A stretch of 15,384 bases of DNA from UHGV virus genome UHGV-1769846; one strand, given 5' to 3'. Position numbers and translations under genes: made by a program. Source of the DNA: a virus. Under the pieces are notes generated by a model. The model was not told the DNA's origin. It saw nothing but the letters and a program-made list of their open reading frames with translations, and made no database searches. Shown piece after piece: positions 1-15,384 of the stretch; positions within the stretch are counted from its first letter, which is position 1; each line of letters starts with the position of its first letter.

Positions 1-55
1 GACTATCACTTATTTAAGTGATATTGGTTGTCTGGAGATTCAGGGGGCCAGTCTA
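1..55 (-). mobile_element. Terminal 55 bp of an IS2 element (left inverted repeat end); the element continues beyond the window start
   Basis: Reverse complement of 1-55 is TAGACTGGCCCCCTGAATCTCCAGACAACCAATATCACTTAAATAAGTGATAGTC, which matches the IS2 left end as I remember it from E. coli. Orientation puts the IS2 transposase ORFs on the minus strand, off-window. Confidence 0.8.
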
Positions 56-83
56 CAATCACATTGGCTGTAATGTCTGTCAT
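56..83 (-). pseudogene. 5' remnant of the tailspike gene (P22 gene 9 homolog), interrupted by IS2
   Basis: Minus-strand ATG at 83-81 with GGAG about 8 nt upstream (92-95). It encodes MTDITANVI, matching the conserved P22/Sf6 tailspike N-terminus (MTDITANVVV...). The reading frame then runs into IS2 sequence and stops after 25 codons. Confidence 0.65.
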
Positions 84-141
84 TTAATTTGCTCCAGATG
101 CAAAGAATCGCCGCAGCATGGCCACGGTGAATTTTGGGCAT

Positions 142-164
142 AAAAAAACCCAGCCGAAGCTGGG
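142..164 (-). terminator. Rho-independent terminator downstream of ant
   Basis: On the minus strand: stem CCCAGC, UUCG tetraloop, GCUGGG, followed by UUUUUUUA (plus-strand A-run 142-148). Lies about 20 nt after the ant stop at 184-186. Confidence 0.7.
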
Positions 165-183
165 TCGTTGCGTTGGTTATCTG

Positions 184-1086
184 TCAGTAATTATGTACTG
201 AAGGAGGTAATTCTTTATTCTTAAGTCTCATCCATGCGGAAAGATTCGTTGGTCCGTCTGGCTCATTGATATCAACATCTCGTGTGTGATTGATTAAAAC
301 GTCTCTCGCCATATCGATAATACGGGAGAACTCATAACCGCAGTCATGACATCTGCCGGAATAGTTCGATTGAATTTGTTTTAGCGCCGGATACAGTTCG
401 CGGAATAATGCCTGTGAGCGGTTGGCATAATCCCATAGCCATACAAGGCTGTTTGCTTCTTTTGCAGAAAGCTCGTTGGTTTTCTTCTCTTGTTTGCCGA
501 TGAACTCACCTTCAAGCACTACCCTGTGGATGTACTCTACTGCTTGTGGTATCTGAGATGCATCAAGCTCTTCAATACTTTCCACATTGAAACGCTGATG
601 AATCATTGCATAAGCTTCTGGGTACATTAGATGCTTTTTGCTGACTAGCATATTTACAGCATCACGAAGCGGAGTCCTGTCATCAACAGATGTTTTCTTC
701 CGTGCATTTGCTGCCTCTCCCTTTGTCCAGTAGTCATGCAGCACAGTAAAGCATTCTTCCTGGTACTGAATCAGTTTATCGCGGATGTCAGCACGAACTT
801 TCTCAGGGTTGATGCTGAACAGCCATCCATTTAACTTCTTCAAAGGAAGGCAGAGTAGCTTACGAAGCTTACCATCAGCGGCAACCATGTTCATATGAAC
901 ACAGTTGAATTTGCTAATCTGCTTCATGAGTTTTGTTTGCTGCGTTGACCAGCTCATTCCGAGGTTTTCAACGATTGGCTTCATCGCAACATATGCAACT
1001 CCGGCAGCCATGGCGGTGATAATTTGCTGACCGTTGAATGGCACGTAAGAGGTGTTCACTGCTTCTAAAATTGCTATACTATTCAT
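184..1086 (-). CDS. ant: Antirepressor (Ant-like, 300 aa)
   Basis: Downstream of arc as in P22 immI. The track ORF begins at a GTG at 1152, but the ATG at 1086 has a GGAGA Shine-Dalgarno 9 nt upstream and gives 300 aa, the length I recall for P22 Ant. N-terminal region resembles phage antirepressor (AntA-type) domains. Confidence 0.75.
1072..1080 (+). promoter_or_regulatory. Candidate extended -10 promoter (TGcTATACT) for an antisense sar-like RNA
   Basis: TGCTATACT on the plus strand inside the first codons of ant, pointing away from ant toward arc. Position is analogous to Psar of P22. Confidence 0.35.
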
Positions 1087-1087
1087 G

Positions 1088-1166
1088 TTGGTTTTTCTCC
1101 ACGGATTTACCGACAACCGAAGCCCTGACTGTTCCAGCAGTTGGGGCTTCACTGTTTTGATTTCTT
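1088..1166 (+). ncRNA. Putative sar-like antisense small RNA covering the ant ribosome-binding site
   Basis: Candidate promoter at 1072-1080 and a plus-strand-specific terminator: 13-bp stem 1119-1131/1138-1150 with two G-U wobbles (A-C mismatches on the other strand), 6-nt loop, then ACUGUUUUGAUUUCUUUG. The transcript would be antisense to the ant SD at 1091-1100. Confidence 0.4.
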
Positions 1167-1318
1167 TGCCGCATCAAGCATCACTTCTGAAAACGTGCGC
1201 TTGCCACTGAATACTCTTTCTCTTCTCAATTTTTCGTTCGTGCCAAATGATTCGCCATGAACAAAATTTGGTCTTAAAATGGTAATCGCAATCTCTTTGA
1301 CTACTGCATCCAAGCGAA

Positions 1319-1471
1319 TCACACCGTTACCCCCTCTCTCTTCAGGCTGTCTATCAGGCGCTTGATAACCTCTGAGTTAAACGACCTGCACTCTTCCTTT
1401 GCCCTGCTACCGATAGCATCCTTTAACGACTGCGGCATCCTTACCAAAATCTTACTTATTTCTTTCTCCAT
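1319..1471 (-). CDS. arc: Arc-like ribbon-helix-helix repressor (50 aa)
   Basis: Translation ISKILVRMPQSLKDAIGSRAKEECRSFNSEVIKRLIDSLKREG aligns with P22 Arc (FNLRWPREVLDLVRKVAEENGRSVNSEIYQRVMESFKKEG). Start taken at the ATG at 1471 with GGAGGG 4 nt upstream, not the TTG at 1507 used by the track. Confidence 0.8.
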   Translation of the reverse strand: MEKEISKILVRMPQSLKDAIGSRAKEECRSFNSEVIKRLIDSLKREGVTV

Positions 1472-1507
1472 GTTACCCTCCACGCAAACAACTCTTTTCG
1501 AATACAA

Positions 1508-1565
1508 AAGATAGCAAAGTGAGTATATCTAGTCAAAATTTTTTTGCATACACTTTGCTATCAAA
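1508..1565. promoter_or_regulatory. Divergent immI control region (Pant-like promoter and candidate Arc/Mnt operators)
   Basis: Minus-strand promoter TTGACT (plus 1531-1536), 17-bp spacer, TATCTT (plus 1508-1513), upstream of arc. Inverted repeat arms ATAGCAAAGTG (1511-1521) and CACTTTGCTAT (1551-1561) flank a 29-bp AT-rich core. The plus-strand mnt promoter is not cleanly resolved. Confidence 0.5.
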
Positions 1566-1585
1566 TTGAATACCAAAGGTGTTAT

Positions 1586-1834
1586 ATGGCAAAGGGTGTG
1601 TCAATTTCTCCAACTACGGTAAGAATCCCTGAATCTTTACGCGAGGCTCTTGCTGTCAGAGCATCAAAAAATGGTCGCTCTGTTAACTCCGAGATCGTCA
1701 TGATTTTGCAAGCCGCGATTGATGAAGATAGGTCGCCAAAGTCAGTTGAGTCATTTGCTCAGCAAGAAGCTGATAAATTCAAAGAGGCGCTACTTGAGAC
1801 GCTAAAGACCATGTATGCTAAGGATGAAAAATAA
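1586..1834 (+). CDS. mnt: Mnt-like ribbon-helix-helix repressor (82 aa)
   Basis: Translation MAKGVSISPTTVRIPESLREALAVRASKNGRSVNSEIVMILQAAI...FKEALLETLKTMYAK resembles P22 Mnt in both the RHH region and the C-terminal helix. ATG at 1586 is preceded by AGGTG; the track's TTG start at 1544 is rejected. Confidence 0.8.
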   Translation: MAKGVSISPTTVRIPESLREALAVRASKNGRSVNSEIVMILQAAIDEDRSPKSVESFAQQEADKFKEALLETLKTMYAKDEK

Positions 1835-2370
1835 TGCTGCACACAATTCATTTCTTATGCCCTGTTAACACTGCCACTGTTGGGCAACTTCAGAACCACT
1901 GTCTCACCGCATTATCTCAAGGCGCAACTGAATTAAATATCCATATATCAAGTCAGGGAGGGGAAACTGCTGCTGGCTTTACTGCGTATAACTTTCTTAA
2001 GTCACTCCCTGTTACCGTTAGAACTCACAACATAAGCAATGTTGAATCCATAGCTAATATCGTTTTCCTGGCTGGCTCAGAACGTTTCGCAAACCCATTA
2101 TCAAGATTCCTGTTACATCCTCTATTATGGTGCTTTGCCTCCCCAGCCGCCGACCATGCCAGATTGAGAGAGTACGGGAAATGCCTCGATAACGATCTTG
2201 ATCGCTTCGTTGAGACGTTCAATATCGACATCGGAACCCATATTAGGTGGGCATCCCTGATAGCAGACTCGACCATTTTGGATGCTAACAAGGCTCTTGA
2301 GCATGGCATAATTAATTCCATAAAAACTGCAAGGCTGGCATCCAATCAGGCAAACTGGTGGGTTGTTTGA
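1834..2370 (+). CDS. ClpP-like (S14-type) serine peptidase homolog, 178 aa
   Basis: Start overlaps the mnt stop (TAATG). Sequence NIHISSQGGETAAGFTAYNFLKSLPVTVRTHNISNVESIANIVFLAGSERFANPLSRFLLHPLL parallels the ClpP core (YINSPGG...AG..IYD...V.T.C.GQAASMG..LL.AG....R...P.SRVMIHQP). Candidate triad Ser72, His95, Asp145. Confidence 0.7.
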   Translation: MLHTIHFLCPVNTATVGQLQNHCLTALSQGATELNIHISSQGGETAAGFTAYNFLKSLPVTVRTHNISNVESIANIVFLAGSERFANPLSRFLLHPLLWCFASPAADHARLREYGKCLDNDLDRFVETFNIDIGTHIRWASLIADSTILDANKALEHGIINSIKTARLASNQANWWVV

Positions 2371-2394
2371 TGGGTAAATCATGATTACTCCTTA

Positions 2395-2420
2395 TAAAAA
2401 ACCCACCTGACGGTGGGTTT
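2395..2420. terminator. Bidirectional rho-independent terminator between convergent operons
   Basis: Stem CCCACC (2402-2407), loop TGAC, GGTGGG (2412-2417). Flanked by an A-run (2395-2401), giving a U-run for the minus transcript, and TTT on the plus side. Confidence 0.65.
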
Positions 2421-2868
2421 AGTCAAACATAGTGTTTCTAAAGTCTCTCGCATACCCTGCTAACACTCTCATTCTATTATGATTGTTAGCAGACATGTGA
2501 GCTACAGGATGAAAAAGAGCAATCAATGAATACCTGTTCTCATCAAAAAGATTTTGTGCATAAACGAGAGCGGTATTGGATGTTTTATGCCACTGCAACT
2601 TTTGCGGTGTGCTGATATCTGTGCCATTTTTTATTGGCTCAAATTTATTTTCACCAATTGCTAAATGAAGGTGCATAAGGCCTGCATCTTCAATATCAGG
2701 AGGTCGATGATAAGAGGTGTCTCTGCCAAAATAGCTGGGCAACGTTCCCGTAGACTTGTAGATGATAAAATCATCTACAAGTGTTTGTTTTAAATCAGGA
2801 AACTCAACAAAAACCGGGGAGAAAAAATAGTCAAAACTATCCTGATTATATTCCACGGTTACTTGCAT
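2419..2868 (-). CDS. YafO-family toxin-like protein (149 aa)
   Basis: Motifs DDFIIYKSTGTLPSYFGRD, HLHLA, ALVYAQNLFDE, LIALFHP and NNHNRM line up with E. coli YafO as recalled (FISYKRDGVLPDIFGRD, HIHLA, HLVYCQGAFDE, LIAILKP, NNQMH). GAGGT sits 5 nt upstream of the ATG, and the start is 8 nt after the upstream gene's stop. Confidence 0.7.
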   Translation of the reverse strand: MQVTVEYNQDSFDYFFSPVFVEFPDLKQTLVDDFIIYKSTGTLPSYFGRDTSYHRPPDIEDAGLMHLHLAIGENKFEPIKNGTDISTPQKLQWHKTSNTALVYAQNLFDENRYSLIALFHPVAHMSANNHNRMRVLAGYARDFRNTMFD

Positions 2869-2876
2869 GTTTTACC

Positions 2877-3443
2877 TCAGTGGAAGTTACCAGAGTGAAA
2901 CACACGAGTCCCGTGCTCAGCAAGCGCACGCAAACCAGCCATATCTACGGAACTATCAAAAACAACCGGAACACATGAGCGTTGTTTAATAAGACTATTC
3001 AGGTTGGTTACGGCAGATCTGGCATCAGCAACAACGATATAGATATCTCTTGCGATCTCTTTAAAATCAGCAGAAGCTTCTTTGAATACCGATTTCATTG
3101 CCCCTTCAAGTCCTCTCAATTGATGCTCTATCAATCGAGACTTTTCTGGTTCAATGATAGACAACACATTGTCTACATTCTCATCGGTAGCGTTTGCAAG
3201 AACACGATAAGCGTATTTCAGCATTCGAGACAATTCTTTAATCGAAGACACCGCCTCATGAAGCTCATCATTAGCCCGTTCACTGCTGAATGAGGATTGA
3301 TGGTAAGCGTGCTGAACGTTATCAGTAACAACCACCTCACAACTGAACGCAGAAGCTTGCTGTAATAGCAAACCTATTGCGACTCCAGCTTTGGCAGCGT
3401 TCAAGCTAAACATTTCATCAATCCCATTAGTCTCATTGCTCAT
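2877..3443 (-). CDS. Hypothetical protein (188 aa), upstream partner of the YafO-like gene; no recognisable family
   Basis: ATG at 3443 with a strong AAGGAGG Shine-Dalgarno 5 nt upstream; the track's TTG at 3473 is rejected. Predicted largely helical, with no DNA-binding antitoxin fold that I recognise. Confidence 0.65.
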   Translation of the reverse strand: MSNETNGIDEMFSLNAAKAGVAIGLLLQQASAFSCEVVVTDNVQHAYHQSSFSSERANDELHEAVSSIKELSRMLKYAYRVLANATDENVDNVLSIIEPEKSRLIEHQLRGLEGAMKSVFKEASADFKEIARDIYIVVADARSAVTNLNSLIKQRSCVPVVFDSSVDMAGLRALAEHGTRVFHSGNFH

Positions 3444-3510
3444 ACAAACCTCCTTCTTATCGGAGATTATCAATAGCTATGCATCCATTGAATACACGCT
3501 ATGCGCAATA

Positions 3511-3539
3511 AGTTTACGTCACGTGATATCATTATGCAA
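3511..3539 (-). promoter_or_regulatory. Sigma70-like promoter with palindromic operator candidates for the 188-aa/YafO-like operon
   Basis: Minus strand TTGCAT (plus 3534-3539), 17-bp spacer, TAAACT (plus 3511-3516). The spacer holds overlapping palindromes TCACGTGA (3519-3526) and TGATATCA (3524-3531). Confidence 0.5.
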
Positions 3540-3618
3540 CCACCGTTCTATCACCGACTAACTTTACTCCCACTCCTATACATCATCTGGTATCCTGCGC
3601 AAAACTAAGGAGGTTGGT

Positions 3619-3969
3619 GTGAATGCTCAGTCTGTCATCATGGTTTTCCTTGGGCTGATTGTCGCAAAACTATATCCAGACTGGTGGAAAGGGGCATTAG
3701 CTACTGTCGCCATCTATTTGCTTTTATCCATCGTTAAGCGATCACTCGCTGAGACCGTAAATCAAGCAAAACGTTTCTCATTTAAGAGTTTAATAAACTA
3801 TGTTACTGGGCTTATTTTTTGCCTTTCAATTCTGATCGCTTCGGCTTTTTTGCCCGTATCAATAGCTAATTTTTTTGGCGCACCATATGAGGTAGGTTAT
3901 CTATTCTCTGTTTCCTGTCTTGCCATTGCTCTTCTTTACCTGTGGACGAGATCAAAGAATAAAAATTAG
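3619..3969 (+). CDS. Small integral membrane protein (116 aa, about 4 predicted TM helices); possible superinfection-exclusion type moron
   Basis: GTG start at 3619 with a near-perfect TAAGGAGGT 5 nt upstream. Four hydrophobic segments and a basic C-terminal tail (RSKNKN). Convergent with gene 16. Confidence 0.65.
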   Translation: MNAQSVIMVFLGLIVAKLYPDWWKGALATVAIYLLLSIVKRSLAETVNQAKRFSFKSLINYVTGLIFCLSILIASAFLPVSIANFFGAPYEVGYLFSVSCLAIALLYLWTRSKNKN

Positions 3970-3986
3970 CCATCCGTGGCTGCCAG

Positions 3987-6002
3987 TTATTGAGCTTCTT
4001 TTTGTGATGCCTGTGCGACTCTGGTGAGCGATTGTGTGACCGTACTGATCGCTATGTCATATGCTGTGCTACCTTTTGGCGTATTTGCCAGACGTAACAA
4101 GGCATTTCGTATAACAGGGCTTTCGTATGCCTTCGCAGCTCCTCCTACGACACCAGCAGCAGGAACAACAAACGCAGCCGTTTTTAGCATCCCCGCTAAT
4201 ACTGCTGCGTTTATGATGCCACCACCAACTAACAATCCATAAAGCTGCTGACCATTTAAGTTTTGAACGTTCGCTTTTGCCGCGTGTCTTGTATCGTTGA
4301 GGTATTTAATAACGCCGTCCAGTTCCTTTCCATGTACGCCTTTAAAGAAAGTTGCTGATTGCTTCCTGTTCCGGTGTAACGCATTAATAAACTTTTCAAC
4401 ACTAATATTTCCAGACGGATCAGTCGCCTTATCTACAGCATTCTGAACTATGGCTGCTCGTGCGTTTTGCCTACCATTGTCATCCAGAAGCCTGTAAAGC
4501 TGAGAACGTTCTGATGGGTTTTGGCTAAAAACGAGTTTTGTTACATCCTCAGGTGTAGCCTTGCCGCTGGCTATTGCCTTTTGAACGCGCGTTCTTCCCA
4601 TCATGTCATTGAATCTAGCCCATGAGCGATCAACCCTAGACATATTGGCAGCTTCTTCTGAGCCTAGTTTTTGGGATACTGCTTTTTTCATATCCGCTGT
4701 ATATGCCTTGTAGACAATATCGCTGGCTTTCTGGAGCGTGTCTTTATCAACAGTCTCGTTTGAATTCATGAACCGCTTTCGAAGGTCAGTTCTGTTTTCT
4801 CTCGCCAGACGCAGGTCATTGGGTCCGCTGGTGATATCGTCTTTAAATTGCTGCAAGACTTTTACCGCGGCTCTATCCTGAGATTTGCCCGGGCGGCTTA
4901 ACACGGCAATCTGATTGTCGATAGCTTTTACCGTGTTTGAGAGATCGACAGGGGTATCCCCCATAGCGTCAATTATGCGGTTATATCGCTTTCCTGCTGC
5001 CTCAATGAATTTTTGTTGCCCTTTAGTCGCAGATTCATAAAGCTGTTTATCAGAAATGCCACCCAGACCATCGCTAAATGTTCTGACTAAATTTTCTCGT
5101 GCTTGTTGTTGATTCAGCCGATTCTTACCGGTTCCAAAAAAAGGAACTCTTTCGCCTAATGTCTGAGCCTGACTCTGCATAAAGGTTTTATCTTTCAGCG
5201 TGTCACTGGTCATTAACGGCAGGTTTCTTTCCGACGCAAAATCGACAGCAGCCTTTGCTTCCGGTGACATCTCACCGCGAACAGCCCTGGAAACCGCACT
5301 AACTGTATTTTCCAGCCCCTTGCCAACACCACCAATGCCAGCAGAAATTACCGTTTGTGCAGGATCAATATCTTCTCCGCCAGCAAGGCTGGTGCCACCC
5401 TGTAGTGCTAAATCTGTAGCAGCTGATTTCCCTATGGCACCAAGCACCGTTCCAGCCCTGCCCGCTGGTGTGAACGCTAACGCATTAGCAAGAAACGAAG
5501 TCAGGTCTTGCGGTGATAAACCTGGCTTGTTCAGGGCATAATCACCGGATGGCAGGGAAACGATAGTGTTACCCTTCTCATCCTGCCTTAATTTCGCCCC
5601 CATACTCTGAAGAATCTTTTCCTGAGACGCGTCGGAGCCGAAAAGTTGAGACCATCCAGCCTTCAGGGCATCCATGCTTAGTGAGTTCAACTCAGGGGCA
5701 GCCCCAACATTTTGCAGTCTCTCCATTTCTGGTGTCATTCGGCTTTCACCGGTAACGGCATCGCGCATTGCAGCACCTAAAACAGCCCCTTGCTCAGCAG
5801 AGCGATCTAGTCCTTCCTTCTGCTGAGTGGCAAGCTGTGCATATCCTGATGCAAGTGAGTTGTCTGCTGGCGATTGCTGAACACCTTGTTGTGTTGGCGC
5901 TGACTGACCAGCAAAATACTCATCAATGGCGGACCCAATATCTTCCGTGCTCGTACCATCAGGAAAGGTAAATGTCTTACCATTTGCAGTTACTTTCATC
6001 AT
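3987..6002 (-). CDS. Ejection (injection) protein, P22 gp16 homolog (671 aa)
   Basis: Last gene of the gp7-gp20-gp16 trio by synteny. ATGA start/stop overlap with the upstream gene at 5999-6002. Large Ala/Gly-rich protein. Confidence 0.8.
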
Positions 6003-7450
6003 TCCACCGTAAATTGAATGCCTGATTTTGACGTGTAGCTACCTCCTGCTGATTGCTGAGTAGCTGGCTGTTGCCTTGATGATTTCTTCCCGCCATTACC
6101 AACATTAACGTTATATTGCTGGTTGTAATTGTCGGTATATTGCTGAATGTCGCGCATTGATTGTTGCAGCGCTTCAGGACTTGAGAAATCAGGCTTTGGC
6201 ATACCCTGAAAATACCTATTGGCCTCTGCTTCGGTGTTGATGCCAGATGCCCCCATATCTCGGGCTGCTGCAATCCCCTGATTTTGCATTTTGCCCATGA
6301 TTCGCTGTGCAGCGTTGTATAGCCTCCTCTCCTCAACACCAGATGCCCTGCTACGAATATCTGCACCAAGAGCAAAAGAACCTGAAGAACCTGTAATACC
6401 TGTCATGAAGCCAAGATCGTCAATTGATGCGCCAGAAATTGCATCAAGATCTTTCTTCATTTCGTAATTCTGTGCATTAGCTGCCGATGTAGCCGGAGCA
6501 GCAATAGAACTGGCGGGGACGCGAATCATATTGCCCTCGTTGTCTATTCCTTCGTAGAACGCATTAGCACCAGCGCCGTGAAGCTTCCTACCAACCGTTA
6601 CCGTTCTGCCATCTGCCAGTTGCACAACATTCTCCCCGCCAGCATCAGGACGACCTCGAACACGAAGATATGTCTTTTGTTGCTCTGGAGACAGGCTGTT
6701 GAAATATTGATATTCTTTAACAGATGCAGGAACAGCACCTCCAGCAGTGCGCAGGGAGTTTTCACGGCTAACAGCAATGCTTTGCGCCTTTAAACCTTCC
6801 CCAGCTTTATTGCTGCGAATCGTCTCTGCCAACTTGCCACGCTCAATATCCCGACCTTCCATTTGATCTTTGATATCGAAATACTTCTCATGACCGAGAG
6901 AAAATAGTGCCAGATTACCTGCGAAGTGCTGGAAGCCCTGCGGGTCATTAACCTGCATTTCCGCAATAGTTTCTGGAGGGATACCTAAACGACGCATCTC
7001 CTTTTCGTTATCCATCATGAACCTGCCAAATGCACCCGGACCAAGCGACGAAGCGACCTGAGCCTTAAGCGCCAGATTGCCAAAATCATCCCGCTGGGCG
7101 TCATCGACATACCCCATGCCTTTACGGACTTCCTCAAACTCTTCGGGGAATGCTGTAATAAGATTACGCATCTGCTCCCTGTCGCCGGACGCATAAGCAT
7201 CCGCATAACCTTTCTGGAATGCCGCTTTACGCTCCTGCTTTTGCTGCTGCTTATAAATATCAGCAACTCCAGCCAGACCACGAAGACCTGTCAGAGCAAC
7301 GTTATTTGCACCTGATCGAGCCAGTTCATTGTTTTCGCGGATCAGACCAAGCGTTGCGTTAATGTCGCTTGCCTTTGGCGCATTCTCATTTTGCGTACCG
7401 ATGCCAGCCAGAAACCCACCAGAATTAATACCCTGTTGCCACGTAGCCAT
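5999..7450 (-). CDS. Ejection protein, P22 gp20 homolog (483 aa)
   Basis: Synteny and size (P22 gp20 about 471 aa). AAGGG Shine-Dalgarno upstream of the ATG at 7450. Confidence 0.8.
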
Positions 7451-7460
7451 TGATTAACCC

Positions 7461-8150
7461 TTAAAACAGTGAACCAAGCAGACCAAGACCAGCACCAATA
7501 CCAGCCCCCCACGGAGTTGATAGCTCGAGAGCACTGGCTATGCCACCACCCAAAAGCGCACCGGATGCAGCACCACTAACACCCTGCTGCAATGCTGACG
7601 GTCGGTTGGCGTTTGCCGCCGCCAGTGCTGCACTTTGCTGCGAAATCTGACTCATGTTGTTGGCATATGTCTGCCCGGCGTTTGCCTGACCTTGCAGTGC
7701 GCCAAGACCAATATTTGCCAGATTCTGGTAGTTGTTCATTTGTCCAGATAGCCATTGCTGACCAAGCGTTGGTGCGATTGTTGCTAACTGATTACTGGTT
7801 GAGGTGGAACCCAATCCACCTGTTGCTTCCGCTGCCGCCAGACTCTGATAGCGAGCCTGACCTGCAAGGTCTTTATACTGCTGAGAGTTGTAATACTGGT
7901 TAAGTGCCTGACCTTGCCCCTCCAGAGACGATAAGTTCTCGAGGCTGCCGACATACTTCTCAGCCAGAGGAGTAAACGGCTTCAGGTTATTCATGATGGT
8001 GTTGAACTGCTGATTTTGCAGGTCTGCGGCATACTTCTGAGCTTCTGCGGCATACTTTGCACTTTTATCGGAGCCACCTTTCCCGCCTTTTTCAGGGCAA
8101 TAAGGTTCCTCGCCGCGCAGTTTTCTGCCCAGCTTAAATGCATATAACAT
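7461..8150 (-). CDS. Ejection protein, P22 gp7 homolog (229 aa)
   Basis: Same length as P22 gp7 as I recall it. Gln/Gly/Ala-rich with a Gly-rich hydrophobic C-terminus. GGGAGA Shine-Dalgarno upstream. Confidence 0.8.
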   Translation of the reverse strand: MLYAFKLGRKLRGEEPYCPEKGGKGGSDKSAKYAAEAQKYAADLQNQQFNTIMNNLKPFTPLAEKYVGSLENLSSLEGQGQALNQYYNSQQYKDLAGQARYQSLAAAEATGGLGSTSTSNQLATIAPTLGQQWLSGQMNNYQNLANIGLGALQGQANAGQTYANNMSQISQQSAALAAANANRPSALQQGVSGAASGALLGGGIASALELSTPWGAGIGAGLGLLGSLF

Positions 8151-8152
8151 GG

Positions 8153-8608
8153 CTATCTCCCGTGATTCAGGAAGTCGATTAGTTCTTCGCGTGTGGCGCT
8201 GTAAAACGTCACGTCATCCACGCCTTTGAAGTATTTCTTGATGGTTCCTACACGCTTAAGGCCAACCATTGCGCAGTACATCTGACCGTGGCGGAATTTG
8301 CGTGCAGCGAACGATGTGACGCACTGAACGGTGGTGTTAGTCAGAATGTATCGCCAGAACGCCAGCCCGATTTCCTTGCTGAATCCACGAACCTCTGGCA
8401 GGTACATGGCGTGGCAATCGAATGTCAGCGGCTGAATCTCCTGATAGTAAACAATGCCGCCGAACTGACCGTGCACGTTAACCTCAAAGTAACGGCATTC
8501 AGGTTTGTAGTCGTATCCATCACCGTTGTTGCTCCCGGCGATAATGTCAGGGTGATTTCCTACGGCTTCTATCAGGTCGATGTTTCGCGTTGGTTTGAAT
8601 GTAATCAT
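8153..8608 (-). CDS. P22 gene 14-like protein (151 aa), position-equivalent virion or ejection-assembly factor
   Basis: Lies between the tail-needle gene and the gp7 homolog, as gene 14 does in P22. ATGA overlap with the needle gene stop indicates translational coupling. Confidence 0.65.
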   Translation of the reverse strand: MITFKPTRNIDLIEAVGNHPDIIAGSNNGDGYDYKPECRYFEVNVHGQFGGIVYYQEIQPLTFDCHAMYLPEVRGFSKEIGLAFWRYILTNTTVQCVTSFAARKFRHGQMYCAMVGLKRVGTIKKYFKGVDDVTFYSATREELIDFLNHGR

Positions 8609-9309
8609 CAGTCAATCAGCCCATGTAATCTAAGTGCTGTTTCAAGCGCCAGAATACGCTGCCGCGCCTGCTCCAAACCTGTAGCGAGAGCTGCGACTTC
8701 GGATTGTGTGTACGTAGTGCCGACCGTGTATGACTGGTTAGCGTTGAATGAACCAAGAAGTGGCGTACCTGTGGCTGCAGTCCATCCGCTCTGCCTTGCT
8801 CCAACGACCTGAATTCCATCAACTGAATATGATGTTTTTACATCCAGCGGTGACGCAAGAGACTGCAATTCGGTTACGGTTTTCGATACGTAATCACTCT
8901 TAATGCCAGAGACATCGTTTTCTACGTCATCCAGTCTTTGGTCAACAGTGACCAGATGCGCCTGAATATCGATAACCTCATCCAGCAAGTAATCAACATC
9001 GCTACGCAGTACGACTATCTTCCCTTCGGCAGTTGTTAACCTGACCTCAAGTAGATTTATCGCTTTTGTGTTTGCGGTGATTCTTGCGTCGTGATCAGCC
9101 AGTTCGACATCCTGTTCATCGTTTTTTACCTGGGCATCGTAAGCGCCCTGACCAGCCTGATTTGCCTTCCCGGCAATTGCGCCGACATCAGCCCCCTGAT
9201 TAATGACATACAGCAGGTAAGACTGGCTGAATATATTGCGTGGAAGGATTGATGTATCGAGTCGTGTAGCCTGAATTGTTACCGGCTCATTGAGATTCGA
9301 ATCAGCCAT
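8608..9309 (-). CDS. Tail needle protein, P22 gp26 homolog (233 aa)
   Basis: N-terminus [77 protein letters not shown] is close to the P22 gp26 N-terminus as recalled. Same length, with a central coiled-coil-like heptad region. Confidence 0.9.
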
Positions 9310-10727
9310 TACTCAATCCTTATCTGGCAACCAGACAGAGTGACAGGTGACTTCGTGATAACGCGCAATTTGAAGCCGACATTTTTCCTGATGCGCCCTA
9401 CTCGCTTCCACAAAACACGTTTGTCGTAAACGAACGGTTCATTCTGCTCAATCATCTGCTCACGCCCGTAATTGATGCCGTCAGTGGTTGCAGAGAGAAA
9501 AAGGCGGTCAGCATACTGCGCAACGCCAGTTGACGACTCAACCTCAAGGTCGAAAACTCTGGCGTTATCCGCTTTGAACAACGGAGTAAACAGCAGGTGT
9601 TCCTGTTGCCTGTCGTACTGGCTGCTGATATCGAACTGCAATTTCCCTGTCATCGATTCAAGCTTATCGCCGCACGTAATTTGGTTGCCTTCGTAAATGA
9701 AGTCGATAGCGCGGTACACATCGTCATACAGGCCTGTTTTCAGTACACACCATTGCGGACCATTGGCGCTTGAAGATGCGTCGTACACGAGGACGTGGCG
9801 CGGCAGGTGAATAATCAGCAACTCATGAGCATCAAACCGCAACGATTCCATCACGCCATCAGCCAGTTCATCAGCAGTGTAGGAGCGGAGGATTTTCTCA
9901 ATGCTCGCGCTGGCTATTGGTGATACCTGACCGGAGCCGATGATGTATACAGAAGGCGCGCCTGTTGCCGGATTGCTGATGAACGCATACGAATCAGCAA
10001 ACGGCGTTTTGCAGTAAGTCCCGGCAATACCTTTCTGCACCATCAGCGATGGCTGTGCGACATACAAAGCGGCACCAACAGTGGTTGCACCAGTCATGGA
10101 GAAATATTCAATCGTTGATGAACCAAAGCAGACAATGAAGTCTCGCCATGTTCCGATGCCGATAATGCCGTCAGGCTGCGATTCTGCGCGATATTGTGCG
10201 CTGTATCGGTCAGGGTGCGATTCGTCTTCAAGGTCAGTAATAAACCATGAATCCGTGCCGTCTTTTGACCACGCATAACGCCCACGTAAGCGTGTAATGT
10301 CGCGGACTGAACCTAACTCATACTGCGTAAATCCGCTGTCTGCAGGCCAGTTTGAGACGGTTTTAACCGTGCCATCATAGCGATACTCAACCAGTTGACC
10401 ATTAACGCCTACAGCCTGAGATGTTCGACCATGCGCCATTGATACACGACCACTTCCGGCAACATCACCGACTTCACTTTCTCCTTTGTACAGCTTGCCG
10501 CCACACACGCGATAAACAGCATTCTGCGCCATGTTGTACTCAACTCCGCGCGATACACCGTTTACATCAGAGCGTTTGGCAATGCCCGGGAATGAGCGAA
10601 GATATCCGCTGCTGTTAAGGATTTCTTTGGGTGTAGCCAACATATTCACTGGCAGATAGTCGATATAGTCGGCGTTTCTAAAGTCTTTGCCGACACCTTT
10701 CATAAGCGGAAGTTGCTGAATCGGCAT
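9309..10727 (-). CDS. Tail accessory / head completion protein, P22 gp10 homolog (472 aa)
   Basis: Same length as P22 gp10 and same position between the gp4 and gp26 homologs. GAGGTG Shine-Dalgarno upstream. Confidence 0.85.
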
Positions 10728-10736
10728 TTATTCACC

Positions 10737-11198
10737 TCACGTACTCGGATCATCTTTCTCGATGTAAAACCGATTCCACGTAAACGCGCTTTTGTTACCA
10801 TTACCGCGAGGCATGTCATTTCGCCGCTCAAGTGGTGGTATTTTGGTTAAAGCGATACAGATTGTTTGATATGCACTGTCAGCAGCGGTAAGGAGAGCGT
10901 CTGACGGCTGAATGACGTTATCCATGCACACTTGCACAGCGAGTTTCAAAGCGACGCCATCATTTGCCCATGCAGGGATGCCTGAATCATCGTCAGGTAA
11001 CGGCATGATGCCGTTTTCTGTATCAGCAAACTGATACCCAAGCTCGATACCTTTCGCCTGCCATGCTGCCATCATGTCTTCGAGGTCATTAATGGCATCT
11101 TCAATTGCCTGAGGGTCAGCATCTGTCAACGTGGCATTGGAATACAGCCCAGCTTTTCGTAAAGCCTTTAGAACGAGATCACCCTTCGTTTTCGCCAT
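10737..11198 (-). CDS. Tail accessory / head completion protein, P22 gp4 homolog (153 aa)
   Basis: Immediately upstream of the gp10 homolog; size close to P22 gp4 (about 166 aa). Confidence 0.75.
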   Translation of the reverse strand: MAKTKGDLVLKALRKAGLYSNATLTDADPQAIEDAINDLEDMMAAWQAKGIELGYQFADTENGIMPLPDDDSGIPAWANDGVALKLAVQVCMDNVIQPSDALLTAADSAYQTICIALTKIPPLERRNDMPRGNGNKSAFTWNRFYIEKDDPST

Positions 11199-11367
11199 CT
11201 TCTTCCGCCTTAGCCACTTTTTGCTTCGTTGCGGTTTCTTCAGGAGTTTTTACCCAACCTTTTTTCAGGTGAGATTTAACTTCTTCGTCATCAACAATGA
11301 TGTAATCGACAGCAAACTGACCGCAGGTGATCATGTTGCCTGGCTTATAGAGCATTGTTCGTGCCAT
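11179..11367 (-). CDS. Small hypothetical protein (62 aa) between the coat and gp4 homologs
   Basis: ATG at 11367 preceded by GGGAGAAG, directly after the coat terminator. Acidic C-terminus. Overlaps the gp4 start by 20 nt. Confidence 0.4.
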   Translation of the reverse strand: MARTMLYKPGNMITCGQFAVDYIIVDDEEVKSHLKKGWVKTPEETATKQKVAKAEEDGENEG

Positions 11368-11380
11368 TGTCTTCTCCCAA

Positions 11381-11401
11381 TAAAAATGGGGCCGAAGCCC
11401 C
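11381..11401 (-). terminator. Rho-independent (probably partial) terminator after the coat gene
   Basis: On the minus strand: GGGGC, UUCG tetraloop, GCCCC, then AUUUUUAUU. Begins 8 nt after the coat stop at 11409-11411. Confidence 0.65.
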
Positions 11402-11408
11402 ACCAAAA

Positions 11409-12662
11409 TTACTGCCCAGCAATAACGATGCCCGTATATTCAGGAACCAGTACAGAGCAACCGTACAGAGTGGTGAAACGCGCAGTGGTTACGCCTTTGA
11501 TGTGGTCGAAGGAGTAAGACATGATCAGCGTAGCGCCCTGCTCGGTGGTTGCTGTCATTACCTGTGGACCCTGACCAGTTGGGAACGCCAGTTTGCCGTA
11601 CATCAGTTCAACAGAACCATCAGCCCAGAACAGGTTAGCAGGTGCTGCGTTCTTGTTGAGAATGGTGATTGCTGCTGATTCTGCCGGTTTGGCATCGACG
11701 TTTGCATATGGACGACTCGCAACATCAGTATTTTCAACAGGGAGAATCTTTGGAGAAATTGTTACGGTAGTTCCGCTAACAGCCAGAACACGGAATACCT
11801 GCGGTTGACCGGTGGTATCTTTTGTGATCTGGTGTACGGAATTCACACCGGCAATGGTGAACGCATCACCAACCTGCAAGCCAGATGCAGATACCGTAAT
11901 AGTCCCCTGTCGGTTATCAACTGGCATACCATTTGAATCTTTCGCTTCAACCTTGTGTTCAGGTTGGCCTGATACTGTCAAGGATTCAGTGCTTCCTTTC
12001 GGTAATCGACCAGAAATATCGGTCTTGTAGCTATCAAAGGAAGCAACCGGAGGGATCTGCGCTTTTTCGTATGCTGTCAGGGTTGCGCCCTGAGCGTAGG
12101 CTCGGTGACCAAGCTCGCCAGCAAGGTCTTTGTAGTTGAAGGGGTTCCAAAAAGAGCGGCGGTTGATACCCTGTGGCACACCAATCGCCGTCATGGTGGC
12201 ATCAATACCTGCCGCACAGTTCCACAAATCACGGCCCTGTGAACCAGTGGTTGAGTCAGCCATTGTGATCACGTTAGTAGCACGCTGCGTGACCATGGAA
12301 ATCAGGTCAGAGTCAATCTGTGCAGCAAGGCGCATACCTGCGGCGCGACCAGCTTCAGTTTTATGTTCCGGATCACGCATTTCACGCGCATCCAGAGTGT
12401 ACAGAATGTTTTTCGGCTCCTTGAACACTGAAGGAACAAGGCGCTGAACCAGTGCTGTTGGCGTTTTGCTGCTGAGGTCGAGGCCTTCCTCAATATTCAT
12501 GTGGTAATGCTGCGGACGATACAGAACATCACCTGCTCGCTGCATTGCTGTATCACCGGGACGGAATTTTTTAGCGTTACGGGAAACTACGCAGGCGGCC
12601 TCAAAGCCTTCAACGTAGTTTTCGAACATGATTTCAAGGTCTTTTGCTAATTGGTTAGCCAT
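11409..12662 (-). CDS. Major capsid (coat) protein, P22 gp5 homolog (417 aa)
   Basis: Follows the scaffold gene; size close to P22 coat (430 aa). Shares short motifs with it (FWAD, YANV). TGGAG Shine-Dalgarno upstream. Confidence 0.9.
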   Translation of the reverse strand: MANQLAKDLEIMFENYVEGFEAACVVSRNAKKFRPGDTAMQRAGDVLYRPQHYHMNIEEGLDLSSKTPTALVQRLVPSVFKEPKNILYTLDAREMRDPEHKTEAGRAAGMRLAAQIDSDLISMVTQRATNVITMADSTTGSQGRDLWNCAAGIDATMTAIGVPQGINRRSFWNPFNYKDLAGELGHRAYAQGATLTAYEKAQIPPVASFDSYKTDISGRLPKGSTESLTVSGQPEHKVEAKDSNGMPVDNRQGTITVSASGLQVGDAFTIAGVNSVHQITKDTTGQPQVFRVLAVSGTTVTISPKILPVENTDVASRPYANVDAKPAESAAITILNKNAAPANLFWADGSVELMYGKLAFPTGQGPQVMTATTEQGATLIMSYSFDHIKGVTTARFTTLYGCSVLVPEYTGIVIAGQ

Positions 12663-12680
12663 GCTTAATGCTCCAATAGG

Positions 12681-13574
12681 TTATTTTTTTGCCTTTTTAG
12701 CGGCGAAATACGGCGTCCAGTCACCAGTTTCCAGCGCCTTGGCTTTCAATTTGTCGAGGTTGTTGATTACTGCGCCGTTGCTCCCCTTAACCGTCGGGGT
12801 TGTGGCTGCCGTGGTTTTTGCTTTTGGCATGATTCTGGCCTTCGATTCGATACGTTCCAGCAGACGACCAATTGCTACGGGGTTGGTAGCTTCTGCCAGT
12901 TGCTTGCGCAGTTCAGCGTTGCGACCAAGCGCCAGAACAACGATTTCCGGCTTCTCTGACTCAAACAGGATCGCGTTTTGTGTCTCGATGGGGATTTCCT
13001 CGAGTACGGCCTGCTCAGCTTCCTGATAGCCAGGAACTTTGAGAGCCTTAACACGTTGCTGATATTTGGATAATCGCTCTTGATAGGCAGCCTGAAGCTC
13101 CTGCTCCTTCTGCTTGCGAGCCATCTCCTGTTGCTGGTACTTGCCATTATCCTCTGCCCACTTAGCCATGCGTTGCTGGTAGATTTCTTCATCGAAACCG
13201 ATGTCCTCATCATCCAGTTTTGGCATTCGCGGTGGTTGAGTGATTACCGGCTGCTGCTCGACGGGTTTCTGAGACTGACGCATCAGCTCTTTCAGCTCGC
13301 GGTCTTTCTCTTTAATCGTCTTGCGCAGGTGTTTTACCAGTCCATGCTCAGCGCCATCTTCGCTGGTTGGCGAATCCAGCTTTTCGTCACCAAAGTAGAA
13401 TTCCTGTTCTGATTCGTCGTCATCAGTTTCAGTAGCCTCCTCTGCATCATTGCCTGAGGACTCACTGCCATCTTCTGTTTCGACTTTTTCAGCCAGTTCG
13501 ACATCATCAGGAATCTGCTCTGACGCGTCGGTTTCGATTTCAACTTCTGGTGTGTTTTCTGCCATCTGGTCCAT
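12681..13574 (-). CDS. Scaffolding protein, P22 gp8 homolog (297 aa)
   Basis: Between the portal and coat genes. Highly acidic N-terminus, long charged helical middle, basic C-terminal tail (FAAKKAKK) consistent with a coat-binding helix-turn-helix. Confidence 0.85.
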   Translation of the reverse strand: MDQMAENTPEVEIETDASEQIPDDVELAEKVETEDGSESSGNDAEEATETDDDESEQEFYFGDEKLDSPTSEDGAEHGLVKHLRKTIKEKDRELKELMRQSQKPVEQQPVITQPPRMPKLDDEDIGFDEEIYQQRMAKWAEDNGKYQQQEMARKQKEQELQAAYQERLSKYQQRVKALKVPGYQEAEQAVLEEIPIETQNAILFESEKPEIVVLALGRNAELRKQLAEATNPVAIGRLLERIESKARIMPKAKTTAATTPTVKGSNGAVINNLDKLKAKALETGDWTPYFAAKKAKK

Positions 13575-13664
13575 TTGTTACCCCTGTTTACTCGATGTTC
13601 AGCCCATCGGAAGGCAATAGGGTGCCAGGCCTCATAAAGACAGCCATTGCACGTTATGGGTTAA

Positions 13665-15314
13665 TTACTGCTGTGGTTGTTGCTGAGTTGATTTTTGCAG
13701 GATGCTGCTGATGTCCATGCGCTGCGCATGGCCCTGTGCCTGACTTTTCAGGACAAGCTCTGCATCAGCACGGGCATTGTCTCCTTGCTGTTGCTGGAAC
13801 TGTCCGAGCAGTTTCAGAGCCTCGCGGATATCAGATTTCTGCTGGCTATCGGCAGATGCGAGGATTTTCACAACATTTGCCGCTGCAACCTGAGCATCAG
13901 TCTGTGCCTGGAATGCTTTAACCTGAATGGCTGCCTGCTCGTTCTGCGCTTTCTGCAATTCAGCCTGACCAGCAAGAAGCTGACCTTGCGCAGCAACCAT
14001 AGCCGGATCTGGCTGACTGGCCTGTTGTTGTTTCGCCTGCTCAACCATCTGCTGTTCTTCTGGCGTTCTCGGCTTGATAACTCCAGACAGAAGCAACTGA
14101 TTGCGGTTGTATTCTTTAAGGTCGTCCATCCCTTCGCCGTCCATATTGTCGAGGATCATCGACGATACAAGGTCGTGTTTCGGCGTTCCGGGCGGGATAA
14201 GTGCCAGCATGGAAAGTAACGACTTAACCGTTGCGTCACGGCGAGTAGCGAACGACTGACCGACATCGACAGTCACTTCATAGTTACCCTGCGAAAGGTC
14301 GTTAAGCGCGATAACCTGCCCTGTCTGACGGTCAACCACTTCACCAGTCATCAGCGCCACGTCATCGCTGCCATCCTCATTAACGATGCGCATTGGCGTA
14401 TCGCTGCCATAGACTTCACGAGCCATAGAAAGCCACACGACGCCAGCACGGCGCATGGATTTAGCCATGTTGTCCATGTAGATATAGGACTGCGTGTCCA
14501 TCCGGTTAAAGATGCTATCAACGGTATCGGTAGCGACGTTGCTCGGCATGTTCTCAAGCTGCGACGCACCTGTAATTTGCTGAATAGCCGTTCCGGTGTA
14601 CTGCAATAGCCCGGCAAGAGCTGGCGGCATTTGTGTCGGAGGTGTCCAGCCAGCAACCTGAGCTTCTGAAATGACTGTTCCGTTTTTGTCCTTCTTGCTG
14701 GTCATAGGAAGAACTGCAGGTCTTTTCTTATTCCTCTCTGCCCAGTGATTCATTAATGGGCCGGGAATGAAATCAACATCCACGATAGGAATGCCATCAC
14801 CGCCAGCCTGAGTGGCGTTATCTGCAATCATGGAAACCATCAGGTTCTCAAGACGCTGTGCATCCATCGCTTTTGCTGCGTGGCCTTCGATTCGCTCCTG
14901 ATTATCAACAAATGAGCGACGCCCATATACCGGGATGAGTGGAATATGTTCGCCCGGAATACGCTTCGGTTCTTCCAGCCATTCAGCGCCAGACAGAAGG
15001 CCGCAATAAACGCGGCGTTTCTTCACCGTTCGCTCACCAATCAGTTCGAATGCGCCATCGGTTAGCTCGTCGACAATATCTTTGATTTGATCTTCATCAT
15101 AGATTGCCGTTTCTCCGCTAACAGGGTTGCGCCACGCCGTGAGCTTCACCTTCTCTATGCGGACTTCGTAGTAACGTCCAACATAGATGGCATCTGGCGT
15201 TGACCAGTCATATTGAGTGCCAGTGTCATCACGAGAAAGGCTTGCCGCGATGGAATCAGGGTATTCAGCCTCGAACGCTTTAGGCGTCATGGAGAACATT
15301 TCCATAGCCCACAT
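13665..15314 (-). CDS. Portal protein, P22 gp1 homolog (549-aa ORF; appears to lack about 175 N-terminal residues)
   Basis: Strong similarity to P22 portal as recalled (GERTVKKRRVY, PGEHIPLIPVYG, and the Gln/Ala-rich C-terminal barrel segment DPAMVAAQGQLLAGQAELQKAQNE...RMDISSILQ). The first ATG at 15314 aligns near P22 residue 176. In-frame stops lie upstream at 15339-15341 and 15375-15377. Confidence 0.8.
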   Translation of the reverse strand: MWAMEMFSMTPKAFEAEYPDSIAASLSRDDTGTQYDWSTPDAIYVGRYYEVRIEKVKLTAWRNPVSGETAIYDEDQIKDIVDELTDGAFELIGERTVKKRRVYCGLLSGAEWLEEPKRIPGEHIPLIPVYGRRSFVDNQERIEGHAAKAMDAQRLENLMVSMIADNATQAGGDGIPIVDVDFIPGPLMNHWAERNKKRPAVLPMTSKKDKNGTVISEAQVAGWTPPTQMPPALAGLLQYTGTAIQQITGASQLENMPSNVATDTVDSIFNRMDTQSYIYMDNMAKSMRRAGVVWLSMAREVYGSDTPMRIVNEDGSDDVALMTGEVVDRQTGQVIALNDLSQGNYEVTVDVGQSFATRRDATVKSLLSMLALIPPGTPKHDLVSSMILDNMDGEGMDDLKEYNRNQLLLSGVIKPRTPEEQQMVEQAKQQQASQPDPAMVAAQGQLLAGQAELQKAQNEQAAIQVKAFQAQTDAQVAAANVVKILASADSQQKSDIREALKLLGQFQQQQGDNARADAELVLKSQAQGHAQRMDISSILQKSTQQQPQQ

Positions 15315-15384
15315 AGCATCAGAGCGGTCTGAAGTGGTTTACTGAATTTGGCCACCTGAACAGAGGTGATATGCTCACCTCAGA

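Follow-up and report, generated by a model that had tools for sequence, protein, structure and literature searches.

Gene content of the prophage segment

The window, by which we mean the whole stretch of 15,384 nucleotides analysed here, carries on its minus strand, in this order, the genes for the portal, the scaffold, the coat, gp4, gp10, gp26, gp14 and three ejection proteins, followed by the immI region, a terminator and the start of a tailspike gene (Table 1). Positions 54–15329 (15,276 nt) are colinear with, and 98.2% identical to, the prophage located at argW/dsdC in E. coli S88; the same prophage is found at argW/dsdC in APEC O1 and in other K1 strains. By its sequence, the window belongs to the CUS-3-like prophages of E. 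coli, a P22-like type specific to K1 strains. CUS-3 is the P22-like prophage of K1 strains that carries neuO, and the synteny of the window with its S88 copy, at the identity given above, is complete. The capsule type of the strain, neuO and the attachment site lie outside the window, as does most of the endosialidase tailspike gene; S88 has this tailspike, neuO and the integration at argW next to dsdC, and a sister contig described below carries an endosialidase tailspike, the neuO region, intS and yfdC.

The agreement with S88 is not uniform along the segment. Positions 54–7000 contain a single mismatch, and the differences are clustered at 7.4–11 kb and 14.5–15.1 kb. The pattern is that of a mosaic: between 7400 and 11000 and between 14500 and 15100, up to ~12% of the positions per 500 nt differ from the CUS-3 of S88, and these segments span gp7, gp14, gp26, gp10 and a portion of the portal gene; outside them the window is almost identical to S88.

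All the genes of the immI/moron region are as in the CUS-3 of S88. The cargo genes of this region, at 1834–3473, likewise correspond to those of S88 and comprise a ClpP-like protease gene on the plus strand and, on the minus strand, a YafO-family toxin gene with the 188-aa ORF upstream of it. The sar RNA is full-length and overlaps the 5′ end of ant, as it does in P22 and epsilon34. An HNH/NUMOD4 homing-endonuclease gene that adjoins gp10 in related P22-like phages is absent from the window; it lies upstream of gp10 in two of these phages (L010, 5073–5657; L011, 6892–7476) and downstream of it in a third (L018, 6150–6695).

Table 1. Coordinates of the features of the window, with one junction of a related contig (last line, in the numbering of that contig).
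Feature	Position	Strand	Basis
IS2 left end (IS2 nt 55 to 1 on the plus strand)	1..55	-	55/55 identity, alignment boundary, published numbering
Start of the inward extended -10 promoter P_IRL (TGAT)	5-8		
Fusion ORF, 25 codons: MTDITANVIV + DWPPESPDNQYHLNK, stop inside IS2	6..83	-	
OrfA docking site TAAATAA	about 10-16		
IS2 42-bp IRL	14-55		
Tailspike gene, first 28 nt (codons 1-9 plus one base, MTDITANVI)	56..83	-	Identical to the annotated S88 start and to the intact 981-aa sister gene
Predicted 5-bp target-site duplication, CAATC on the plus strand, GATTG on the gene strand (tailspike nt 24-28)	56..60	.	Predicted; one copy visible
Shine-Dalgarno GGAG, 8 nt 5′ of the tailspike ATG	92..95	-	Direct sequence reading
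Intrinsic terminator between ant and tailspike	147..166	-	Terminator scan; Rho-independent terminator of phage epsilon34 annotated at the same position
Antirepressor ant, 300 aa, intact	184..1086	-	Identical S88 protein (Ant); Pfam P22_AR_N and P22_AR_C on identical sister contig
sar antisense RNA, immI	1087..1153	+	Rfam RF00262, 83.9 bits against a gathering score of 43
Rest of the immI/moron region	1319..3969	minus: arc, YafO-family toxin, 188-aa ORF; plus: mnt, ClpP-like protease, 116-aa ORF	RefSeq S88 annotation, exact protein matches
P22-type virion genes gp16, gp20, gp7 (ejection), gp14, gp26, gp10, gp4, coat, scaffold; intact	3987..13574	-	ORF list; Pfam families on the 100% identical sister contig
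Portal gene, 3′ part, codons 179-732; first 178 codons missing	13665..15329	-	S88 alignment ends at 15329; PF16510 on sister contigs
ISEc52 left end, 55 nt; the remaining element lies beyond the right edge of the window	15330..15384	+	Exact 55-mer in AHB22; multi-copy in E. coli genomes
ISEc52 junction in Logan contig ERR4162066_105	16697-16723		

Insertion sequences at both ends of the window

Window positions 1–55 (GACTATCACTTATTTAAGTGATATTGGTTGTCTGGAGATTCAGGGGGCCAGTCTA) are identical at 55 of 55 positions to the left end of the IS2 copy of MG1655, where the match adjoins the 5′ side of the gene annotated as ‘IS3-like element IS2 family transposase’. The preliminary description had assigned the first 55 bp to the left end of IS2; this identity and the position of the tip of the element at window 55 bear it out, and the search of this stretch against IS2 that it proposed returned a 100% match (E=3e-20). 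Among 5,426 complete E. coli genomes, 4,702 contain the match, at a total of 20,394 places, many of them 100% identical.

The tip of IS2 was set by aligning the window with the IS2 copies of MG1655 and VTB97022v and with the intact tailspike region of S88. The IS2 copies (n=3 aligned) agree through ...CCAGTCTA, i.e., up to window position 55, and diverge beyond it. The intact phage sequence matches the window from position 54 on, the two bases TA being common to IS2 and to the phage by chance. In the published layout of the left end (PMC3299598), TTAA occupies IS2 residues 39–42, ATAAGT residues 43–48 (the OrfA site) and TGAT residues 48–51, and the window read from base 55 to base 1 matches this layout over residues 39–51. 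The left terminal inverted repeat of 42 bp, starting with TAGACTGG, is thus present and is followed by the OrfA site and by the extended -10 of P_IRL.

The same terminal 55 nt, with the 42-bp IRL, the OrfA site and the start of P_IRL, are found in simple insertions by which IS2 inactivates genes of E. coli. As in IS2 gene knock-outs, the element is oriented here in such a way that transcripts of the host gene enter IS2; its body extends leftward beyond the window and has the transposase on the minus strand, like the tailspike gene. Unlike the cases in which the full element is available (1,331 bp with orfA/orfB and a programmed -1 frameshift), the window holds the left end alone.

At the other extremity, positions 15330–15384 are the left end of ISEc52, an element of the IS3 family (55/55, two annotated copies in strain AHB22). 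The alignments to all relatives end at 15329, and the portal protein, which has 732 aa in S88, is cut in the window after codon 178. The prophage stretch enclosed between the IS2 left end and the ISEc52 left end amounts to 15,274 bp. We take the window to be an entire short-read contig, built with k=55, which ends where unique sequence meets repeats, because both of its ends consist of exactly 55 nt of a repeated IS, as is the signature of de Bruijn assembly. A de Bruijn assembler operating at k=55 leaves repeat ends of 55 nt on its contigs. Read in this way, the assembly broke off at a repeat on either side of the window, and claims that reach past these points need long reads.

The tailspike start

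The ATG at positions 83–81 of the minus strand opens a reading frame that begins MTDITANVI, and a GGAG (95–92) precedes it with a spacer of 8 nt. Many K1 strains have an ant/tailspike junction that matches positions 54–400 at 100% identity, and in them the gene is annotated as ‘phage tailspike protein’, and the order ant, terminator, tailspike ATG is that of S88 and epsilon34. These data agree with the earlier proposal that the IS2 end abuts the N-terminus of a tailspike gene equipped with its own ribosome binding site. The nine remaining codons are too few for a profile search with PF09008; the intact sister gene hits this family (Head_binding).

The phage-derived part of the tailspike gene is limited to nt 1–28, that is nine codons and one base. 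Codon 10 (GTA, Val) is recreated by chance by the terminal TA of IS2, and the residual ORF has 25 codons (83..6), MTDITANVIVDWPPESPDNQYHLNK. Truncation of the gene after codon 9, as previously described, is therefore correct at the visible junction, located at nt 28. Two further ORFs span this junction (18..143 on the plus strand and 40..141 on the minus strand), and exact-protein look-ups found neither of them on record.

Sister contigs and relative age of the two lesions

An exact look-up of the gp7 protein led to the Logan contig ERR583637_36, which is identical to window positions 54–15359 at 15,306 of 15,306 nt. This contig starts in an ISEc52 end at the same portal position as the window; on the other side, its tailspike gene is intact and encodes 981 aa with Head_binding, endosialidase and Peptidase_S74 domains, and it is followed by intS and yfdC. 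Since ERR583637_36 has the same ISEc52 insertion in the portal gene together with an intact tailspike, the portal lesion is shared and older, and the IS2 junction arose later.

A second relative, contig k127_51197 of the ENA assembly ERZ918210 (human gut metagenome, 15,526 bp), shows 0 mismatches to window positions 3665–15329. ISEc52 accounts for 126 nt at its portal end, and the contig is just long enough for exactly 126 nt more past window position 56. Probably, this independent assembly holds the same segment bounded by the two insertion sequences, a reading in which the left end is deduced from the length of the contig. If k127_51197 carries the same allele, its left end should consist of 126 nt of the IS2 left end and then continue with CAATCACATT....

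Probable insertion of IS2 into an already inactive prophage

Taken together, the explanation that we favour, with a probability of about 0.8, is that IS2 inserted into the tailspike gene of a CUS-3-like prophage that ISEc52 had already inactivated. According to this scheme, ISEc52 would first have cut the portal gene, leaving the prophage inactive, and IS2 would later have entered the tailspike gene by its usual copy-out/paste-in transposition, in the orientation of the gene and with duplication of the 5 bp GATTG. From then on, the tailspike start would yield at most a peptide of 25 codons, late transcripts would read into IS2, and the downstream remainder of the gene, lacking both a Shine-Dalgarno sequence and a start codon ahead of Met12, would give no functional tailspike. 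The IS2 hit would be a second lethal lesion in a prophage that was no longer viable, i.e., a case of neutral decay that creates no new function.

Two complete IS2 copies served as a guide to the structure expected at this site: each is 1,331 bp long and sits between 5-bp duplications, CAAGG in MG1655 and GACAT in VTB97022v. By analogy with them, the target duplication would correspond to window positions 56–60 (Table 1), and the right junction is predicted to read ...GGGGCAAATCCA GATTG TATCGATGCC.... This right junction, consisting of tailspike sequence, CAATC and the IS2 right end, was not found in genome_contigs, and the exact IS2::tailspike junction of the window is absent from genome_contigs, viral_contigs and metagenome_contigs. 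An IS2 junction at tailspike nt 28 occurs in 0 of 5,426 complete E. coli genomes. No protein on record corresponded exactly to the downstream part of the tailspike when it was taken to start at Met12, Met19 or Met90, or at GTG codon 51 or 85. A form of the remainder starting at GTG-106 is on record and was set aside; it stems from another event, in which an ISEc52 right end lies at ~nt 300 of the gene (SRR13992797).

Of the IS2 ‘insertion’ announced in the preliminary description, the junction between IS2 and the tailspike gene stands; the far end of the element, its 5-bp duplication and what follows of the gene lie beyond the data, and with a single junction visible a simple insertion falls short of proof. 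It is the most likely reading, because the event is very recent, with zero substitutions relative to the intact sister. Alternatively, the far side of IS2 could be something other than the rest of the tailspike gene, the remainder, possibly with neuO and int, having been lost or relocated through the activity of IS2 or through recombination of IS2 copies with one another. Such a deletion or rearrangement would fit with the single junction in the data and with the fact that neither the predicted right junction nor a remainder starting at Met12 or Met19 was found. Furthermore, large IS-bounded deletions occur in related CUS-3-like prophages: ISEc52 joins erf to the middle of ant in 19AR1321 and the lysozyme gene to cII in AHB22, and DETEC-P829 has a tailspike gene with an IS3-family element and with most of the remainder gone. 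On the other hand, the sister contig, identical at every base, retains the full tailspike, the neuO region and intS, which indicates a very recent event; recent IS2 events mostly take the form of simple insertions that duplicate 5 bp; and the negative look-ups are weak evidence, given that the source genome is in no searchable collection. We consequently hold a deletion or rearrangement to be unlikely and keep the simple insertion as the working interpretation.

Consequences for the prophage

The preliminary description had attributed to the disruption of the tailspike the inability of the prophage to produce infectious particles, unless complemented. This attribution does not hold: the portal gene was already cut by ISEc52, also in sisters with an intact tailspike, so that the tailspike lesion, real as it is, is not the cause of the prophage defect. 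For the same reason, a supply of tailspike protein alone would not rescue the prophage, the portal gene being disrupted as well. Loss of gene 9 in P22 gives DNA-filled, non-infectious particles that can be rescued by added tailspike protein, which is the phenotype foreseen in the preliminary description. The prophage of the window differs from such gene 9 mutants in that no particles are expected from it, since it lacks an intact portal gene too. Annotation should mark this copy as defective and name both IS lesions, one in the portal and one in the tailspike gene, and the IS2 and ISEc52 junctions constitute handy clonal markers of the lineage.

Insertion sequences in related tailspike genes

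Five other prophages of the P22-like, argW type carry an insertion sequence in the tailspike gene, as the window does; the positions differ from that in the window and the IS types mostly differ too, and all of them are independent events. In VTB97022v, a full IS2 of 1,331 bp (4725–6055) is inserted at codon 140 of a different P22-like tailspike at the argW locus, with the GACAT duplication mentioned above; this IS2 has the same orientation as that of the window and lies at another position. The Logan contig ERR4162066_105 differs from the window by one base, and its tailspike gene breaks off after nt 1422 (codon 474), where the left end of ISEc52 begins. In a further Logan contig, SRR13992797_204, the right end of ISEc52 (1–46) abuts ~nt 300 of the same tailspike allele. 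In MS1657 (5001–10653), ISCro1, of the IS66 family, is found at ~nt 1525 of the endosialidase tailspike gene, both halves of which are present, and in DETEC-P829 the IS3-family element is located at ~nt 249.

Contig SRR13992797_204 ends in the heptanucleotide repeat of neuO, (AAGACTC)n, at 2835–2864, the known phase-variation tract. Two other prophages are remodelled by ISEc52 outside the tailspike gene. In 19AR1321 (17205–20001), the ISEc52-bounded deletion extends from erf to the middle of ant, with a tailspike 100% identical to the sister allele and with neuO and intS kept; AHB22 has ISEc52 copies in ant and in the lysozyme gene and has lost Q, nin and the replication regions.

CUS-3-like phages are prone to decay, and their structural genes are often pseudogenes (PMC9659370). 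We read the IS2 hit as ordinary neutral prophage decay caused by active insertion sequences, and the kind of event is already known. Insertion of an IS is a routine route of decay of resident prophages, and since decay of CUS-3-like prophages in K1 E. coli has already been described, we attach little importance to this single case. One could also imagine a selected knock-out, in which the loss of the endosialidase tailspike would be favoured in K1 hosts with a virion-less prophage while the neighbouring neuO cargo is retained, the benefit being, for example, that no capsule-degrading enzyme is released. What speaks for this idea is the number of independent IS hits in the same or homologous tailspikes (IS2 at nt 28, ISEc52 at nt 1422 and at ~nt 300, ISCro1 at ~nt 1525 and IS2 at codon 140); however, these cases were found by looking at the tailspike gene and are thus subject to ascertainment bias, and insertions are also present elsewhere, in ant, in the lysozyme gene, in the portal gene and, as ISEc12, in MS7163. 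Moreover, at least 80% of the tailspike lies in one place in 181 complete genomes, and 8 of 8 sampled matches with 100% coverage are a single uninterrupted piece annotated as tailspike protein. Finally, 19AR1321 has lost almost the whole prophage and has kept an intact tailspike and neuO. Selection for the loss of the tailspike is thus very improbable, and neutral decay remains the interpretation that we adopt.

That the 55 nt of IS2 were misjoined to the prophage during assembly, the real tailspike being intact, is hardly credible: the junction does fall at the end of a contig, and IS2 is present in many copies, but de Bruijn contigs end inside repeats only if reads link the unique sequence to the repeat, the same regular overlap of 55 nt is seen at both window ends, the length of the contig from the independent assembly (k=127) fits both boundaries to the base, and with an intact gene the contig would run on into the tailspike, as it does in ERR583637.

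Transcription from the IS2 end

It had also been suggested that the IS2 end may supply outward transcription. The outward-facing -35 of hybrid or junction promoters is located in the right end of IS2 (PMC3299598, PMC9330008), as in the hybrid promoter of ampC, whereas the window holds the other end, which contributes only P_IRL, a weak and inward promoter (PMC3299598). A scan of positions 1–290 of the plus strand with the promoter consensus gave no promoter-like site, and the suggestion is not sustained. Downstream of the IS2 end, no plus-strand gene is encountered for about 1.5 kb, and any transcript that left IS2 on this side would be antisense to ant. With a simple insertion, it would be the right end of IS2 that faces the tailspike remainder, itself devoid of a start before Met12 and of a Shine-Dalgarno sequence.
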